A stretch of 46,407 nucleotides of DNA from an uncultured archaeon (lineage in GTDB: Archaea; Asgardarchaeota; Thorarchaeia; Thorarchaeales; Thorarchaeaceae), in NCBI GenBank assembly GCA_964458565.1, contig CAYWJO010000027.1:1-46407 (forward strand), given 5' to 3'. The notes beneath the pieces are model-generated. The model saw only the letters and a program-made list of their open reading frames with translations. It had not been told where the DNA came from and ran no database searches. The first letter of the stretch is position 1; the number at the start of each line of letters is the position of its first letter. The position numbers were made by a program, and so were the translations under genes. This document shows, one piece after another, positions 31,478 to 39,583 of the stretch.

Positions 31478-32743
31478 GTGAGTTCGACAGGTAGGAGTGC
31501 CATTGTAATTATCGTAATCGTTTTAATTGGGGTCGGTGTGGGAGCGGGAGCCTACTTTTTCGTCTATTATTTTATTCCAACTTCACCCACAACAACTGCT
31601 TCACCAACCACCACAACTACCGTACCAACAACTTCAACAATTACATACTATTCGTATACTGACTATTGGTCTACAAGCACATCATACCTCTCTTATACAG
31701 ATTATTGGTATTCGACGACCTCATATTGGTACACAGACTATTGGAGTACCTCAACATACTGGACTGAAAATCCATATGATATTGCTATTGTACTCACGAC
31801 TGATGGCGCAGGAGATGAGGGATTCAATGATGGTGTACTTAATGGTGCTTTAAGCGCATGGCAAGACTTCAGATTAGAAATTGATGTAGTTCAACCTACT
31901 CATATCATGGAATATGAAGTATGCCACCGGATCTTTGCTGAACATACCTCATACACAACTCCCTACAAACTAATCATAGGTGTAGGATTTGACCAAGCAG
32001 ATGCTATCATGAGTGTTGCCGAGGATTATCCTAATCAGAACTTTGCTATCGTTGATATGTTTATAGATCCTGCAGAGTATCCTAATGTTGCCTCCTTATT
32101 ATTTTCTGAACACGAGGGATTTGCACTTGTAGGTGCTATTGCCGGTCTCATCACTCAGACTGATTCGATAGGTTTTGTTGGTGGAATGGATATCCCACTC
32201 ATAAACAAATATTTAGCTGGATATGCTTTCGGAGCTAACTATACAAATCCAGGTGTCAATGTAACCTATGCATACACCAACGATTGGGTTGATATTGCAG
32301 CAGGTCAGACTCTTGCTGACGGTATGTATACTCAAGGGATTGATATTATCTTTGCAACTGCATTATATTCAGGCCTTGGAGTTTTTGACAGTTGCAGAAC
32401 CATAATCGAAGATGAAACAAATACCACACCAATTTGGACTATCGGTTATGATACCCCTCAAATGTACTTAGGAACTTCTGATTCTGAAAATCCCTCTGCA
32501 CCAACATTCTGTTTAACTTCAATGATCAAGAGAGTTGATGTCTCAGTCTACAACATTATTAGGGATGTTTTCCTTGGCAACTTCACGGGGGGACTGAAGT
32601 TCTTTAATTTAAGTAATAATGGCGTTGATTATGAAGTTAACAGTAATCTTCTAAAATTGCCCGGTTCAGTAATTTCTGCAGTTGAATCTTTTAAAGCTGA
32701 TATTAAATCTGGTAGTATAAGTGTCCCTGATTCGATATACTGA
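31478..32743 (+). CDS. BMP (PnrA/TmpC-like) ABC substrate-binding protein, divergent paralog, with N-terminal TM anchor and YTDYW repeats
   Basis: GDEGFN, EHEGFALVG, GFVGGMD, SMIKRVD; clear paralog of 32970..34115. Confidence 0.92.
   Translation: MSSTGRSAIVIIVIVLIGVGVGAGAYFFVYYFIPTSPTTTASPTTTTTVPTTSTITYYSYTDYWSTSTSYLSYTDYWYSTTSYWYTDYWSTSTYWTENPYDIAIVLTTDGAGDEGFNDGVLNGALSAWQDFRLEIDVVQPTHIMEYEVCHRIFAEHTSYTTPYKLIIGVGFDQADAIMSVAEDYPNQNFAIVDMFIDPAEYPNVASLLFSEHEGFALVGAIAGLITQTDSIGFVGGMDIPLINKYLAGYAFGANYTNPGVNVTYAYTNDWVDIAAGQTLADGMYTQGIDIIFATALYSGLGVFDSCRTIIEDETNTTPIWTIGYDTPQMYLGTSDSENPSAPTFCLTSMIKRVDVSVYNIIRDVFLGNFTGGLKFFNLSNNGVDYEVNSNLLKLPGSVISAVESFKADIKSGSISVPDSIY
31646..31767 (+). repeat. Coding tandem repeat (Y/L/W)-x-YTDYW-S/Y-ST x3
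   Basis: YSYTDYWSTSTS / LSYTDYWYSTTS / YWYTDYWSTST; codons differ between units. Confidence 0.85.
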
Positions 32744-32969: not shown

Positions 32970-34115
32970 ATGAGCTCATCAAGTAGAGGCATGATGGCAG
33001 CAATCGTGATTATTATTATCGCAGTTGGTGCTGTTGGTGCCTGGATATTGATTGCCAATCCGTTCGCTCCCCCAACAACAACTGAACCAACAACTACAAC
33101 TACAACGACAACAACAACTACAACCACTGGGAATCCAAATCCCTATGATGTAGCAATAGTCTTTGCTACCGGTGGTCTAGGTGATAAGTCGTTTAATGAT
33201 GGTTGTAAGACTGGTGCAGATGAAGCAGTAACGGACTTTGGCATTAGCTTCACATATGTGGAGCCTACAGCAATCACTGAATACGAAGGATACATACGAG
33301 GATATGCTGAACATACAGCTTATGATGATGGATATGATCTCATCATATCGATTGGTTTTGATCAGGCAGAAGGGATAATGGCAGTTGCTGATGATTATCC
33401 AGACCAGCACTTCGCTATTGTCGATATGTTCATTGACCCAGTTAACTACTCAAATGTTGCTTCCCTGCTTTTCAACGAGCATGAGGGTTCAGCACTTGTA
33501 GGTGCTATAGCCGGACTAACAACAGAAACTGATAAAATTGGTTTCGTCGGTGGTGCGGATATTCCACTCATTAACAAATTTTTGGCAGGATACGCATTTG
33601 GTGCGAACTATACCAATACTGGTGTTAATGTAACATACGGATACACCAATGATTGGGTAGATACTGCAGCAGGTCAGACTCTTGCTGATGGTATGTATGC
33701 TCAGGATGCAGACATTATCTTTGCAGCTGCTGGTCGTTCGGGACTTGGTGTCTTTGACAGTTGCAGCTCAATCATCGATGCTGAGACAAATTCAACCAAC
33801 ATCTGGACAATTGGTGTAGACAGTCCACAGATGTACCTTGGTACGGCTGATCCTGAAAACCCAGTTGCGCCAACTTTCATGTTGACATCAATGCTCAAGA
33901 GAGTTGACTTAGCAGTATACCAAATGATCGCTGACACATTTCATGGTAACTTCACAGGTGGTTTGAAGTTCTTCACCCTCGCTAATGGCGGTGTAGACTT
34001 CGAGATAAACGAAGATTTACTTGTTCTACCCCCAACAGTAATTACTGCAGTTGAGGATTTGAAGGCAGCAATCATCAGTGGAACTGTGGTAGTTCCAGAC
34101 GCAATCTACTGGTAA
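32970..34115 (+). CDS. BMP family nucleoside ABC substrate-binding protein
   Basis: Canonical GGLGDKSFN, AAGRSG, IGVDS, SMLKRVD; TM anchor and poly-Thr linker. Confidence 0.95.
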   Translation: MSSSSRGMMAAIVIIIIAVGAVGAWILIANPFAPPTTTEPTTTTTTTTTTTTTGNPNPYDVAIVFATGGLGDKSFNDGCKTGADEAVTDFGISFTYVEPTAITEYEGYIRGYAEHTAYDDGYDLIISIGFDQAEGIMAVADDYPDQHFAIVDMFIDPVNYSNVASLLFNEHEGSALVGAIAGLTTETDKIGFVGGADIPLINKFLAGYAFGANYTNTGVNVTYGYTNDWVDTAAGQTLADGMYAQDADIIFAAAGRSGLGVFDSCSSIIDAETNSTNIWTIGVDSPQMYLGTADPENPVAPTFMLTSMLKRVDLAVYQMIADTFHGNFTGGLKFFTLANGGVDFEINEDLLVLPPTVITAVEDLKAAIISGTVVVPDAIYW

Positions 34116-34128
34116 TCAGTGATTAATT

Positions 34129-34146
34129 GAGGGGAATCTTCCCCTC
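34129..34146 (+). terminator. Hairpin GAGGGGAA-TC-TTCCCCTC + T-rich tract
   Basis: 14 nt after the BMP stop. Confidence 0.6.
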
Positions 34147-34245
34147 TCTAATTTTCTTTCATTCTCTTCATCCCTTTAAGTTAAATAGTCGTAATTCTAA
34201 GAGTCAAATCAATCTGTTACATAACAGAGTAAGCGAGGACTCAAT

Positions 34246-36555
34246 ATGTATGCAGTTGAACTGGAGACTATTTCAAAGACTTTTCCGGGTGATGTTCAAG
34301 CAAACAAGAACATAACATTGCGGGTCAAAGAGGGAGAAGTTCATGGTTTGCTTGGAGAAAATGGTGCTGGGAAGTCCACTCTGATGAATATTCTTTACGG
34401 TCTACTTGATCCAACATCTGGGAAAATAAAAATTCGTGGTGAGGAAGTTACTCTCAAATCACCTGATGACGCTATTTTGCGTGGTGTTGGAATGGTCCAT
34501 CAACACTTCAAACTGATTCCTCCTTTAACCGTTACAGAAAATGTAATCATGGGAATGGAACCTAGAAGGCGAAGAATAAGCCTCTTTACTATTTTCATTA
34601 TGCTTTTGACTTATGTGTATTTGATTGCGATGACATTCACCATTTTCGGAGTTGAGGTTATTGTCGGAGAAGAAACATTGGTTGATTATTCGATTCCAGC
34701 TTTCTATAATGCTATTTTCATCATTCTTACAATATTCACATACTTAACCTATGACCGGATTGGAGGTTGGATGAACAAGTTAGGTTTTGTAGGTCGTTTC
34801 TTTGTCAGATTAGGTTCCCCTCTCAAGAAGGTTATTGATCAACTCGCTCCGATTGGCATAAAAAATGCCCAAGAACGAATTCGTCAAATTGCTATTGAGA
34901 ATGGGCTTGCAATAGATCCAACTGTTAAGATTGCTGATCTATCTGTTGGGTTGCAACAGCGTGTTGAGATCATTAAAACACTATATCGTGAAGCAGAGAT
35001 ATTAATTCTGGATGAGCCAACGAGCGTCCTCACACCTCAAGAAGTGGATGAACTTTTTGAAACTCTCAAAGCATTCAGGGACTCTGGAAAGACAATCATA
35101 CTCATCACTCACAAACTCCGAGAGACCATGGCTTTATGCGATCGAATCAGTGTTCTACGTGATGGTGAGCTTGTTGGTACTGTAAATAGGGATGAAACAT
35201 CACGAGAAGAATTAGCAAAAATGATGGTGGGTCGTCCTGTTGTTTTCACTGTAGAAAAAACTCTTGGACATCCAGGAGAAACCATACTTTCTGTAGATAA
35301 TCTTGTAGTCAGAGATCATCGTGGTCTTATGGCTGTGAAAGGAGTATCTCTTGAAGTAAGGGCTGGAGAAATCTTGGGAATTGCTGGAGTTGAAGGTAAT
35401 GGGCAGACTGAACTTGTTGAAGCACTTACAGGTCTTAACCGACCCATAGTTGGAAGAGTGTGTATTAACGCTGATCCATCAGTTTCACTGAAAAAGGGTT
35501 TCTTAAGCCGACTTTGGGACGAAGATCTGACCAAGTATTTTACTCATGGGCTTATGTTATCATTGTTCTGGTTGTTTGCGTTGTTTTTCTGGGTTCTTTT
35601 AACATTTGCACTGGTGCATACCACATTGTTTATCGGGTTAGCAGTGAGTATCTTTATTCTAGGATACATAACAGGTTCTATCACTATCTCACTTTCAGAT
35701 GCGATATGGAGGATACAATGTAAAGAATCGAGAGGTAGTAAGTTTCTACAAGGCATTATCCAATTTGTAGCACTTGCACTATTGTCTCTACCTTTGGTAT
35801 TCCTTGAACTATACTTCATATACTCCGTATCTTTCGATTTGTTGGATTCTATTATTAGGATGTTAATCCCCTCTATACTGATAGGATTCGTGAGTAAGAG
35901 AATTGCATCTCATTTCCAACTAGAGGATATCGTAATCGTGCAGGCTGACGTAAAACCCTGTGAGGATTGGATGCTTGATATAACAGGTGTTAAGCCAAGA
36001 CAGGTCCGTAGATCCGGTATTAGTTACATTCCAGAAGATCGTCACAAGAGAGGACTCCTTCTCTCATTTACCTTGGAAGAAAATCTTGTTTTAGGTCGTC
36101 ATTATATCAAACCATTTTCCAGAGGTAAAGGACTTCCCATTCTTGAATTAAGTACAATCGAGGATTTATCAGATTCGCTCATCAAAGAATTTTCGATAAA
36201 AACAACTGGCAGCGAGAGTTTTGCCAGTACTCTATCCGGTGGCAATCAACAGAAGGTTGTTGTAGCTAGAGAGATTGCAGCGAAACCCCGATTGTTAATT
36301 GCTGCTCAACCTACGAGAGGTCTGGATGTAGGTGCTACAGAGTTTATCCATAGAACCCTTTTGAGACTACGGGACGAAGGCGTTGCGATTCTTCTTGTTT
36401 CAGCAGAGCTTGATGAAATTCGTTCATTGTCAGACCGGATTGCGGTGATTTATTCTGGTGAAATTGTGGGAATGCGGCAACCGGAGGATACTGATGCTCA
36501 AGAGCTTGGCCTGATGATGGCTGGTGCTTCTGCAGATTCGGAGGTGTCTGTATAA
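34246..36555 (+). CDS. Nucleoside ABC importer ATPase (NupA/YufO-like, two NBDs) with two inserted TM modules
   Basis: GENGAGKST, VHQHF, LSVGLQQRVEI, LDEPT, ITHKL; GVEGNGQ, IPEDR, LSGGNQQK, QPTRGLD; hydrophobic inserts at about aa 107-202 and 409-577. Confidence 0.93.
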   Translation: MYAVELETISKTFPGDVQANKNITLRVKEGEVHGLLGENGAGKSTLMNILYGLLDPTSGKIKIRGEEVTLKSPDDAILRGVGMVHQHFKLIPPLTVTENVIMGMEPRRRRISLFTIFIMLLTYVYLIAMTFTIFGVEVIVGEETLVDYSIPAFYNAIFIILTIFTYLTYDRIGGWMNKLGFVGRFFVRLGSPLKKVIDQLAPIGIKNAQERIRQIAIENGLAIDPTVKIADLSVGLQQRVEIIKTLYREAEILILDEPTSVLTPQEVDELFETLKAFRDSGKTIILITHKLRETMALCDRISVLRDGELVGTVNRDETSREELAKMMVGRPVVFTVEKTLGHPGETILSVDNLVVRDHRGLMAVKGVSLEVRAGEILGIAGVEGNGQTELVEALTGLNRPIVGRVCINADPSVSLKKGFLSRLWDEDLTKYFTHGLMLSLFWLFALFFWVLLTFALVHTTLFIGLAVSIFILGYITGSITISLSDAIWRIQCKESRGSKFLQGIIQFVALALLSLPLVFLELYFIYSVSFDLLDSIIRMLIPSILIGFVSKRIASHFQLEDIVIVQADVKPCEDWMLDITGVKPRQVRRSGISYIPEDRHKRGLLLSFTLEENLVLGRHYIKPFSRGKGLPILELSTIEDLSDSLIKEFSIKTTGSESFASTLSGGNQQKVVVAREIAAKPRLLIAAQPTRGLDVGATEFIHRTLLRLRDEGVAILLVSAELDEIRSLSDRIAVIYSGEIVGMRQPEDTDAQELGLMMAGASADSEVSV

Positions 36556-38627
36556 TGGTTATGGAAGAACACTTACCCAGTTCAGACACAAGGAAGAAGT
36601 CTGACACTCGAGCAAAGAGGATTTTCAAACGTATTCACACTGCTCTAGATAGTTCGACTCCTGAACCAATGAAATCCATTTGGAGAACAATCGTAAGATC
36701 TGATATACCACCTCCAGAGCAAATTATCTATCCGTCTAGAATCGACAAGATTTTTCGTTATTTCGTAACAGGTTCAATGTTCTATCTTCTCATGCTAATC
36801 GTTACTGCATTATATACAGCACTGATAGCACCTGGAATAGGAATTACTTCTCTGTCTATTCTCGTAGCATTATCGGCTATCTTGATAATTTTCTTTGGAC
36901 TAATCAACACTGGACTCACAACACGGTTATGGAAAATTCCACAAGCTGGAAAATTCGGTTATGTTGCGATGCATGGCCTCTCGTTATTGCTTGAGATGAT
37001 TATTTTCTATTTACCACATCTCTTGTTTGTGTTTGACACAACTGATCGTATCATTCTCTTGGTAATAGTGATGGGTAGATTTCTTATTTACGCCTTCACT
37101 TTCGGATATCTAAGTTCAAGAATTGGTCATGGATTTGCCTCTGTTGATGAGGGTGCATTGGGTAGTTTACCCAAATACCTCGGGGATTCTTTTCAGAAGC
37201 TTATTTCTTGGAATTTCTGGAAGACAATCTTATGGGCAGGTGTTTCAGTCTTGCTCGCAATTCTTGTCAGTGCTCTTATTATGGTAACAGCAGGGTACGA
37301 TCCAGGGGTAGCTTTCAGTGCATTGACTACAGGTGCGCTTCGGCAATTTGATCGAGTGTTATTCTATGCTACACCATTAATACTCACTGGTTTGGCAGTG
37401 GCTCTAGCTTTCAAATGTGGTCTCTTCAATATAGGTGCAGAGGGCCAAGTGTATATGGGATCTATTGCAGCTGCTGGACTTGGAGCCCTTTCATGGTGGT
37501 GGTTCACGCCACCAGAATGGTTTGCAGTTTTTCACATTCTGGGATGTTTAGCTGTTGGTGCTTTGTGCGGCTTTGCTTGGGGTCTTCTTCCAGGACTCCT
37601 GAAGTCATACAGAGGAGCGCACGAAGTAGTAACTACAATGATGCTTAGCTACACAGCAGTGATTTTTACTACATGGCTTGCATCGGACTTGTGGAAGGAA
37701 CCTGGTCCATACCAGTATAATGCTCAGACTCCAGAGATTGACCCTACAGCTGTTATAGGGAATTTGTTTGGCTCTGATTATCTAAACGGCGGATTCATAA
37801 TCGCAATCCTCGGTGTCGTATTTGTATGGTTCGTGTTGAATCGAACTGTGCTTGGATATGAGATGCGTGCGGTTGGGATTAACGTAGATGCTGCAGAGTA
37901 TTCAGGAATCAATCCAAAATATAGGATGGCTTTGGCATTAGCTCTTAGTGGAGCACTTGCAGGATTAGCAGGTGCTTCCGAAATACAAGGCCAATATCAT
38001 CGATTCTACAAGGAATGGTCTCCTGGTCTTGGTTGGGATGGAATCACAGTCGCAGTTCTTGGACATAATAATCCTTGGGGGTGTCTTCTGGGTGCTATCT
38101 TTTTTGGATTCCTTAGAGCTGGTGGAAACGCTATGCATCAAGAAGCTCATGTACCCTCTGAAATGGTCGGTGTTATTCAAGGTCTTGTGGTTTTATTTGT
38201 GGCTGCTCCAAGACTGATTCAATGGATGGCAGATCAGGGTATTGATTATGCGAAATGGTTGCGAAATAAACCCACGGTAGCACTTCCACCTTTCATCACG
38301 ATGGTGATGGGTATATTGGCCATGGGTATAAGCTTTTCATTCATTATCTCAGCACCAGAAGAACTTGCTATGCTTGTAGGTCCTCTTTGGATCGCAGCGA
38401 TGCTGAGTCTGATTGCTGCTCTTTCCATGTTGGGTAGGCAAAAACGAGGACCAGATTTGTCAATGCTTGCAGCAATATCATGGGTTATGATTGGTCTTCT
38501 GGGAGTAATGATGAGAGATACTGGTGTGACATTTGTCTTTCTTGGTATGGGTTTCGTCTGGATTGTGATTTGCACGATAGCGCTCTTGATGCTACAGAAG
38601 TATCATGAAATGGAGGTGCAGCAATAA
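36555..38627 (+). CDS. Nucleoside ABC permease (NupB/YufP-like) with N- and C-terminal TM extensions
   Basis: TPLILTGLAVALAF, GLFNIGAEGQ, HEVVTTMML, GYEMRAVG.N..AAEYSGI, GWDGITVA; 690 aa. Confidence 0.93.
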   Translation: MVMEEHLPSSDTRKKSDTRAKRIFKRIHTALDSSTPEPMKSIWRTIVRSDIPPPEQIIYPSRIDKIFRYFVTGSMFYLLMLIVTALYTALIAPGIGITSLSILVALSAILIIFFGLINTGLTTRLWKIPQAGKFGYVAMHGLSLLLEMIIFYLPHLLFVFDTTDRIILLVIVMGRFLIYAFTFGYLSSRIGHGFASVDEGALGSLPKYLGDSFQKLISWNFWKTILWAGVSVLLAILVSALIMVTAGYDPGVAFSALTTGALRQFDRVLFYATPLILTGLAVALAFKCGLFNIGAEGQVYMGSIAAAGLGALSWWWFTPPEWFAVFHILGCLAVGALCGFAWGLLPGLLKSYRGAHEVVTTMMLSYTAVIFTTWLASDLWKEPGPYQYNAQTPEIDPTAVIGNLFGSDYLNGGFIIAILGVVFVWFVLNRTVLGYEMRAVGINVDAAEYSGINPKYRMALALALSGALAGLAGASEIQGQYHRFYKEWSPGLGWDGITVAVLGHNNPWGCLLGAIFFGFLRAGGNAMHQEAHVPSEMVGVIQGLVVLFVAAPRLIQWMADQGIDYAKWLRNKPTVALPPFITMVMGILAMGISFSFIISAPEELAMLVGPLWIAAMLSLIAALSMLGRQKRGPDLSMLAAISWVMIGLLGVMMRDTGVTFVFLGMGFVWIVICTIALLMLQKYHEMEVQQ

Positions 38628-39583
38628 TGCAAGGACTTGATGTCACACTAAACATTATTGGTTGGCTTTTGAAAGCGACATTGGAATCTTCAGTACCACT
38701 GGTTCTGGCTGCACTTGGTGGTATGTTTTCAGAACGCTCAGGCGTGGTGAATATTGGTCTTGAAGGAATGATGTTACTTGCTGCAGCTTCTGGAGCAGCG
38801 GGCAGTTTTCTCACAGGTAATCCATGGATAGGTCTTCTATTTGGAGTTGGTGCGGGTGCAGGATTAGCAGTTATCCATGCAGTAATTTCCGTGAAATACA
38901 AAGGTAATCACATTGTGTCTGGTACAGGAATTTTACTCTTTGCAGCGGGTGCAAGTACGTTGATGCTACAGGTAATCTGGGGTCGACCTGGTACCTCTGA
39001 TAGAGTACCAACAATTCCAGATGTAGGATTCTCTGGAGCTTCAGATGTTCCTCTCCTTGGTCCTGTGCTTGAGGGAGTATCTCCAATTGTTTACGGTATG
39101 TTTGTAATAGCAATTATCTGTTGGTATGTCCTTTACAAGACACCCTTTGGATTACGCTTGCGAGCTGCAGGAGAAGACCCAAGCACACTTGATACAGCTG
39201 GTGTGAATGTTGAAACTATGAGATATATTGGAGTAATTTTGAGTGGTGTGCTTGCAGGACTAGCTGGAGCTTATCTATCTATATCTTTCCAACCTCGATT
39301 TAGTAAAGGTATGACTTCTGGTCGGGGTTTCATCGCGCTCGCAGCTTTGATATTTGGAAATTGGACTCCGATTGGCTGTCTTTTAGCTGGAATCTTCTTT
39401 GGCTTCCTTGATGGCCTTACCTTCGCAGTGCAGATTATCCCAGAGCTATCATTTCTGCAACCATATAACAACTTCATTTTCATGTTGCCGTTTGTGCTTG
39501 TTGTAGTTGCTCTAGCAGTCATTCGGAAGTCTGTGCCACCAAAAGCAGTAGGTGTACCGTATGAAAAAGAGACGAAAGGATGA
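38627..39583 (+). CDS. Nucleoside ABC permease (NupC/YufQ-like)
   Basis: SERSGVVNIGLEGMM, TPFGLRLRAAGEDP, GRGFIALAALIFGNW, PKAVGVPY. Confidence 0.95.
   Translation: MQGLDVTLNIIGWLLKATLESSVPLVLAALGGMFSERSGVVNIGLEGMMLLAAASGAAGSFLTGNPWIGLLFGVGAGAGLAVIHAVISVKYKGNHIVSGTGILLFAAGASTLMLQVIWGRPGTSDRVPTIPDVGFSGASDVPLLGPVLEGVSPIVYGMFVIAIICWYVLYKTPFGLRLRAAGEDPSTLDTAGVNVETMRYIGVILSGVLAGLAGAYLSISFQPRFSKGMTSGRGFIALAALIFGNWTPIGCLLAGIFFGFLDGLTFAVQIIPELSFLQPYNNFIFMLPFVLVVVALAVIRKSVPPKAVGVPYEKETKG

Follow-up and report, generated by a model that had tools for sequence, protein, structure and literature searches.

Two copies of a four-helix membrane domain in a putative Bmp/PnrA-type ABC importer operon of a Thorarchaeal archaeon

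Nucleoside and purine importers of the Bmp/PnrA (CUT2) type, exemplified by the BmpD/BmpA systems of Borrelia and the PnrA systems of Treponema, are ATP-binding cassette (ABC) transporters, and the ATPases of ABC importers are textbook peripheral proteins. Within the ABC nucleotide-binding domain (NBD), the regulatory insertion in NBD1 of CFTR is a short, soluble and disordered segment. Here we describe a Bmp/PnrA-type operon, made up of a substrate-binding protein (SBP), an ATPase and two permeases, that lies at positions 32970-39583 (+) of a 46,407-nucleotide stretch of DNA from an uncultured archaeon of the Thorarchaeaceae (contig CAYWJO010000027.1; the whole stretch is called the window below). 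The ATPase and the first permease of this operon carry homologous copies of one domain with four transmembrane (TM) helices. The explanation that we favor, with moderate rather than high confidence, is that a lineage-specific 4-TM domain was captured twice by a single importer, once as an in-frame insert in NBD2 of the ATPase and once as an N-terminal fusion to the permease, where it would anchor the ATPase in the membrane and might dock the two subunits onto each other.

BmpD has been described as the substrate-binding component of a family of ABC transporters for nucleosides (PMC7093131). As in the Bmp/PnrA importers, the operon in the window combines a Bmp-family SBP (Pfam PF02608), a single ATPase with tandem NBDs (PF00005) and two BPD_transp_2 permeases (PF02653 in both), with conserved NBD motifs and permease cores. 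It differs from these importers in its ATPase, which has two and four TM helices inside NBD1 and NBD2, respectively, and in permease 1, which has a 4-TM N-terminal module specific to this genome and a 4-TM C-terminal extension that is family wide. The two proteins are long: the ATPase has 769 amino acids (aa) against about 500 aa in a typical member, and permease 1 has 690 aa against the ~340 aa of the permease profile.

The ATPase gene (34246..36555, +) encodes a CUT2/RbsA-like double-NBD protein in which Pfam ABC_tran (PF00005) matches three stretches; its best NCBIfam matches, double ATPases of ~500 aa, also align in three pieces. Insert-free orthologues from the same archaeal family, mostly 525-553 aa long, align to three blocks of the protein (aa 1-110, 193-408, and 578-765), and these blocks define two inserts. 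Insert 1 is a 2-TM hairpin in NBD1, past the Q-loop region (aa about 111-192; 34576..34821, +), with hydrophobic segments at residues 109-142 and 145-168; the orthologue alignments break at about residue 110 and resume at ~193. Insert 2, in NBD2 (aa 409-577; 35470..35976, +), consists of linkers and the 4-TM module. Here the orthologues jump from about residue 408 to ~577, four TM segments are found, and position 35470 is exactly the first codon of the insert. It is placed between the strand GRVCIN and the segment DITG..PR, ahead of the Q-loop IPEDR, and the NBD2 motifs are intact on either side (IPEDR, LSGGNQQK, and LLIAAQPTRGLD). The gene of permease 1 (36555..38627, +) starts with an ATG that overlaps the ATPase stop codon as TAATG. 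Its BPD_transp_2 core is matched by PF02653 at aa 266-549 and by an NCBIfam permease profile at aa 228-552, the best such profile spanning 337 positions. Orthologous permeases align to permease 1 only from aa about 205-215 on, and it is the N-terminal extension ahead of this point that holds the second copy of the module.

The proposal that insert 2 and the permease N-extension contain the same 4-TM domain goes back to a first-pass annotation made from the sequence alone, whose open reading frames (ORFs; ATPase 34246-36555, permease 36555-38627) and quoted motifs we recovered as described and in the stated order. Direct comparison of the two segments by BLASTP (28% identity over 171 aa, E 2e-4) is suggestive and open to the objection of hydrophobic bias. 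Both segments were also used, separately, as queries in six-frame searches of 86 genomes of the family, where they matched the same stand-alone ORFs of ~170-340 aa, one of them on contig 9 of the window's own genome. We then built profile A1 from 27 stand-alone domains only, with neither fused copy included, and profile A2 from a joint alignment. In hhalign, A1 matched insert 2 with a probability of 99.1% (E 1.6e-18) and the permease N-extension with 97.5% (E 5.1e-12), as against at most 0.5% for TM-rich control segments: 0.2% for the permease C-extension, 0.4% for insert 1, and 0.4-0.5% for an unrelated 2-TM insert from genus g4. An alignment no better than hydrophobic bias, which the first-pass annotation had named as the result that would speak against homology, is thus not what was obtained, with E values of 1e-12 to 1e-18 set against those controls. 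In a search of the window's own genome, A2 located the module cores at 35506..35961 (+) in the ATPase (142.5 bits, E 1.5e-41) and at 36714..37157 (+) in the permease (aa about 54-201; 122.6 bits, E 2.1e-35), and the profile search found exactly three copies in this genome, namely these two and the stand-alone gene.

The family consensus reads KYFxHG ... G..N..LS..IW.I ... W.SLLGHG ... IP ... GY..K.VA..F. The corresponding motifs are KYFTHG, GSITISLSDAIWRI, FLQG, LSLP, and IGFVSKRIASHF in the ATPase copy and RYFVTG, GLINTGLTTRLWKI, AMHG, FYLP, and FGYLSSRIGHGF in the permease copy. Despite a deep divergence (about 25% identity), both fused copies keep the order of the motifs, and both keep all five columns that are invariant in the family: the G of the first HG, the G before N, the W, the G of the second HG, and the G of GY. 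At the level of sequence profiles, ATPase residues 409-577 and permease residues about 54-201 are therefore confirmed as true homologues belonging to the same protein family. The internal YFxxG/xxHG two-fold repeat noted in the first-pass annotation is moderately supported as well. When the halves of the family alignment are compared with each other, HG falls on HG and G..N on GY..K, in register, with a probability of 66% (E 5.5e-5), compared with 0.2% for reversed sequences and 0.4-7.8% for other hairpins. Insert 1 and the 2-TM insert of genus g4 were considered as half-modules and rejected, with probabilities of 0.4-7.8%; against the profile of the complete module, insert 1 reached 0.4%, which indicates no relationship.

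The module does not belong to any curated family and is described here as a family of its own, defined by profiles A1 and A2. Modeling by AF2 with alignment A2 gave four helices with good confidence (pLDDT 86.9, pTM 0.78), in agreement with the four TM helices seen by hydropathy and arranged as two 2-TM hairpins. A Foldseek search with this model against the PDB found no match at E <= 0.001, a sequence-profile search of the PDB gave 0 matches, and the best hit of a wide VIA-align search, the 4-TM region of the Pyrococcus dolichyl-phosphate mannose synthase, had a Z score of 6.4, which is below the meaningful level for helical bundles. Among Pfam and NCBIfam families, none matched the TM domain at threshold, and only scattered sub-threshold matches were seen. 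SpoIIM (PF01944), DUF4013 (PF13197), and Sensor (PF13796) are, like the module, small multi-TM helical domains that single members match below threshold (E 5e-4 to 0.08), but no member reaches the gathering score and membership is not established: the best scores are 19.6 bits for SpoIIM and 16 for DUF4013 (gathering cut-off of 26.9 in both cases), each matched by 1-2 of 32 members. Actinobacterial Sensor/HisKA_3 kinases reach TM-scores of 0.49-0.53 against the module model. The ESM Atlas returned a single cluster, of unnamed archaeal hypothetical proteins 142 aa in length, which fits the model closely (TM-score 0.81/0.90, root mean square deviation 1.6 Å) and in which Bathyarchaeota is the commonest label.

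Relatives of the module were found by exhaustive hmmsearch of 1.84 billion cluster representatives, which yielded 394 proteins at E <= 1e-3, mostly of 130-300 aa. Their source labels are "hypothetical protein" and metagenome-assembled genomes (MAGs) of Thorarchaeota, Bathyarchaeota, and Odinarchaeota. Word-indexed searches of a 5.8-billion-protein set returned only the query for each segment, as did the A2 profile when limited to longer proteins, the divergence of the domain being too great for 5-mers to be shared. In a phylum sample of 400 genomes, the module is present in 59 of the 85 that belong to the window's family but in only 2 of 314 outside it; within the sampled Asgard phylum it is thus nearly confined to one Thorarchaeal family, with Bathyarchaeota-labeled relatives. 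Stand-alone members (e.g., RDE13383.1 and MDH4213038.1, which have no Pfam family) share the motif order, the five invariant residues, and the four helices with the fused copies. As a rule they carry one or two zinc ribbons at the C terminus, but since many short members (130-170 aa) lack one, the ribbon is an accessory and not a defining feature. The fused copies differ from them in being embedded in ABC subunits, in having each lost one near-invariant residue, and in having no zinc ribbon: no Cys pairs or ribbon follow either copy in the sequences of the ATPase and permease 1. The stand-alone genes occupy a syntenic locus near the gene for methionyl-tRNA synthetase (MetRS) across genera, in one to three tandem copies (examples are contig 9 of the window's genome, 8622-9107 [L061:2602-3306], L071:7026-10006, and L066:6001-6837). 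Some natural chains of 407-443 aa hold two copies (metagenomic proteins P0006, P0009, P0015, P0017, P0032, and P0011), with the architectures module-linker-module-zinc ribbon and module-2TM-module.

How might such a domain sit in the importer? Several lines of argument give good support to both of its ends being cytoplasmic, namely, the even number of helices, the position inside a cytoplasmic NBD and ahead of the permease core, the cytoplasmic linker that precedes it in an SBP fusion (see below), and the zinc ribbons that follow it in the stand-alone form. The linkers that flank the module in the ATPase, about 20-30 residues on each side, are very probably long enough to span the distance from the NBD surface to the bilayer. 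Insert 1 and the module together would then make the ATPase a 6-TM integral membrane protein that is permanently held beside the permeases, a conclusion for which the case is strong. In the mechanism that we propose, one copy entered the double ATPase by in-frame insertion into a loop on the surface of NBD2 and a second was fused to the N terminus of the first permease; the six inserted helices would tether the ATPase in the membrane next to the permeases, and the module would self-associate, so that the copy in the ATPase docks onto the one in the permease and the pair serves as an intrinsic clamp for assembly of the complex. Of these steps, self-association and docking are only weakly suggested, by the two-copy chains, the tandem gene arrays, and the several fusions to components of a single type of machine, a combination that is typical of self-associating units. 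It is tempting to speculate further that the module is a homotypic membrane-association device that ties SBP, NBD, and permease together or into clusters, with the stand-alone zinc-ribbon forms as free adaptors, but we regard this broader version as doubtful.

Like the regulatory insertion of CFTR, insert 2 would be an additional stretch that the beta-subdomain region of an NBD accommodates with its fold preserved; in contrast to it, the segment is a folded 4-TM membrane domain with a family of its own. A literature search on TM insertions within ABC NBDs and on the module family retrieved nothing relevant. Hence, the transporter family is a known one, and what is new, as far as the searched literature goes, is the module family and the presence of a folded TM domain inside an ABC NBD. 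If the interpretation is correct, the ATPase of this operon would, to our knowledge, be the first described ABC NBD to have become membrane integral through a folded TM domain placed within its own fold.

The two fusions in the window have counterparts in related genomes. In three species of genus g6 (G072, G074, and G069), the module occupies the same residue-level site in NBD2 of the ATPase, between "...V.I" and "DIT..PR..R..G" and upstream of the Q-loop IPEDR. The ATPases of g6 lack insert 1 and its permeases (498 aa) lack the N-extension; stand-alone copies are present in these genomes. Genus g3 adds a third type of fusion, with open frames of about 660-965 aa that end in the module in at least five genomes (G002, G081, G091, G090, and G088). 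The one analyzed in detail, from G002 (937 aa; L069:632-3445 [+], contig 9), has an extracellular SBP domain of family 5 (Opp/Dpp type; PF00496, E 2.3e-47), which is followed by three TM helices, a cytoplasmic linker of acidic character, and, at the C terminus, the module (hhalign 98.7%, E 4.2e-16). With NBD, permease, and SBP fusions at hand, the module has been joined to three classes of ABC importer parts. These sequence comparisons indicate that it is mobile and has been fused to the three classes in different genera, as the first-pass annotation had anticipated in speaking of a mobile 4-TM module recruited into two subunits; the profile search for stand-alone or further fused copies that it had proposed turned up both kinds, among them tandem two-copy proteins, the g6 ATPases, and the g3 SBPs. 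The fusions are confined to a narrow uncultured lineage. For a family known only from hypothetical proteins, fusion to three classes of ABC parts within one Asgard family is a rare case in which the logic of domain fusion hints at a function, and the hypothesis it yields is that of a self-associating membrane tether for transporter assembly.

As to the history of the two copies in the window, the domain tree groups the ATPase insert of the window's genome (G000) with those of g6 (support 93/90) and places the permease copy on a long, unresolved branch among stand-alone members, not as the sister of insert 2. A DNA comparison of the two copies in the operon found no similarity and no repeat. 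On both grounds, a recent duplication of insert 2 within the operon was rejected as the source of the permease copy. An origin of insert 2 from an intein or mobile element is not supported either: the ATPase has no Pfam matches to Hint or endonuclease domains, no direct repeats bracket the insert, and what it encodes is a membrane domain that is conserved and subject to purifying selection. In the tree of the host ATPases, G000 falls with genus g4, and the insert-bearing g6 genes nest inside g6 beside insert-free genes. This mismatch between tree and inserts requires repeated loss or transfer of the insert-bearing segment. Insertion at the insert-1 site is found in five other genomes (G003, G018, G019, G023, and G006), with very poorly conserved sequence. 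Precisely at the insert-2 site, two g4 ATPases (in G100, L023:1797-3077 [-], and in G097, L033:1784-3031 [-]) have a different, unrelated 2-TM insert (~65-70 aa), and a third g4 genome, G098, has no insert there. Because different inserts recur at the same sites, the NBD loops are hot spots for TM insertions in this clade, and the unusual ease with which TM inserts have come and gone at fixed loop sites bears on how soluble and membrane domains come to be combined.

This same lability speaks for passive accretion, the chief competitor of anchoring and docking. In that case, the module, like insert 1 and the 2-TM insert of genus g4, would be something that permissive NBD loops and protein termini tolerate, at most a generic anchor, and its copies would have no specific interaction; we consider this possible, if clearly the less probable of the two. 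It would account for the patchiness of the inserts (insert 1 in 6 genomes, insert 2 in 4, the other 2-TM insert in G100 and G097, and none in most orthologues) and for the failure of the insert-2 bearers to unite in the host-gene tree. Selection can be read in both directions. Among the three g6 genomes, the ratio of nonsynonymous to synonymous substitution rates (dN/dS) of insert 2 is 0.26-0.34, compared with 0.08-0.19 for the flanking NBD, so that the ATPase insert is under purifying selection which is looser than that on its host gene. A ratio three times that of the flanks fits accretion, but one that is still about 0.3 does not fit it well; nor do the five invariant positions and the motif order that were kept through the divergence to about 25% identity, or the fact that three classes of ABC importer parts all took up one specific family and not just any hairpin.

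Several observations weigh against the anchoring and docking that we favor, and two of them, the residue losses and the unfused g6 permeases, also speak for accretion. Each fused copy has lost a near-invariant residue: the N of G..N is T in the ATPase (GSIT), and the H of the first HG is T in the permease (VTG). The ancestral activity of the module may therefore be decaying or not fully retained. Purifying selection on TM helices may reflect no more than the need for membrane compatibility. Only this genome, a single MAG, was found to have the permease N-extension. The g6 operons have the ATPase insert without the permease extension, so that a permease-fused copy is not required for keeping the ATPase copy, and the fused copies need not pair heterotypically. 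An AF2 model of a natural two-copy protein, taken as a stand-in for pairing, came out with low confidence (pLDDT 59, pTM 0.39). Finally, the gene neighborhoods of stand-alone members contain no ABC or transporter genes beside them and are uninformative about their role.

Alternatively, the module could have a regulatory or sensing function, in which conserved residues clustered at the cytoplasmic face (two His-Gly pairs, Trp, Asn, and Lys) would bind a ligand, a lipid, or a metal and so tune ATPase activity from within NBD2. This idea draws on the location of the invariant and near-invariant residues, which, when the alignment is compared with the AF2 model, are all found no more than about 10 residues from the cytoplasmic end of one of the four helices, and on the cytoplasmic zinc ribbons of the stand-alone members. 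It also draws on the Walker A motif of NBD2, GNGQT (within GVEGNGQTE; aa about 380-390, window about 35380-35410), in which Gln replaces the canonical Lys and which would make NBD2 a plausible regulatory site. Orthologues without the insert have the same Gln, so that the degenerate motif predates the insertion, and NBD2 is probably a degenerate nucleotide site throughout the clade. Considering that the module matches no ligand-binding family or fold, that each fused copy lacks one near-invariant polar residue, and that the zinc ribbon was not kept in the fused forms, we judge a regulatory function to be improbable.

That the similarity merely reflects hydrophobic or compositional bias, or that the fusions are assembly artifacts, could be argued from the weak direct BLASTP match, the lack of relatives in word-based searches, and the restriction of the permease fusion to one MAG, but it is hardly credible in view of the profile matches against four TM-rich controls, the reversed-sequence controls at 0.2%, the shared invariant columns, the uninterrupted in-frame ORFs of both fused genes (ATPase and permease 1), and the recurrence of the ATPase insert in three independent genomes; as a source of the homology, hydrophobic bias is already refuted by the profile matches and controls.

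The C-terminal extension of permease 1 (aa 553-690; 38211..38624, +) has four TM segments (574-602, 602-627, 633-654, and 655-683). The first-pass annotation had pointed out both that this permease is about twice the usual length and that it ends in an extra ~4-TM extension, at aa about 574-683 in our analysis. This description is accurate, but the extension is not special to this genome. It is common to all ~500-aa orthologues of the family, those of 492-523 aa aligning through aa about 675-681, and on this sequence evidence it was already present in the ancestor of the family. With an hhalign probability of 0.2% against A1, it has no relationship to the module. The best-matching NCBIfam permease profile, of 337 positions, does not include it.

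Of the remaining operon genes, permease 2 (38627..39583, +) encodes a protein of ordinary length (318 aa; PF02653, E 5.1e-42), and the first gene (32970..34115, +) encodes the SBP, a 381-aa protein of the Bmp/PnrA type (PF02608, E 5.8e-50) whose translation begins with an N-terminal TM segment followed by a poly-Thr stalk. Across the operon, the best NCBIfam matches are double ATPases and permeases of BMP-type B6/sugar transporters, all under the equivalog cut-offs; the SBP, for instance, scores 67.7 bits against a B6-type equivalog with a cut-off of 400. By similarity at the family level, the importer is thus putatively of the nucleoside, or Bmp/PnrA, type. The long poly-Thr stalk of the SBP, TTTEPTTTTTTTTTTTTTG (aa about 36-53, window 33075-33125), separates the N-terminal TM anchor from the Bmp domain. 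A nearby profilin-like gene and the source names of relatives assign the genome to the Thorarchaeota (Asgard), and a further Bmp paralogue is located immediately upstream of the SBP gene (31478-32743).

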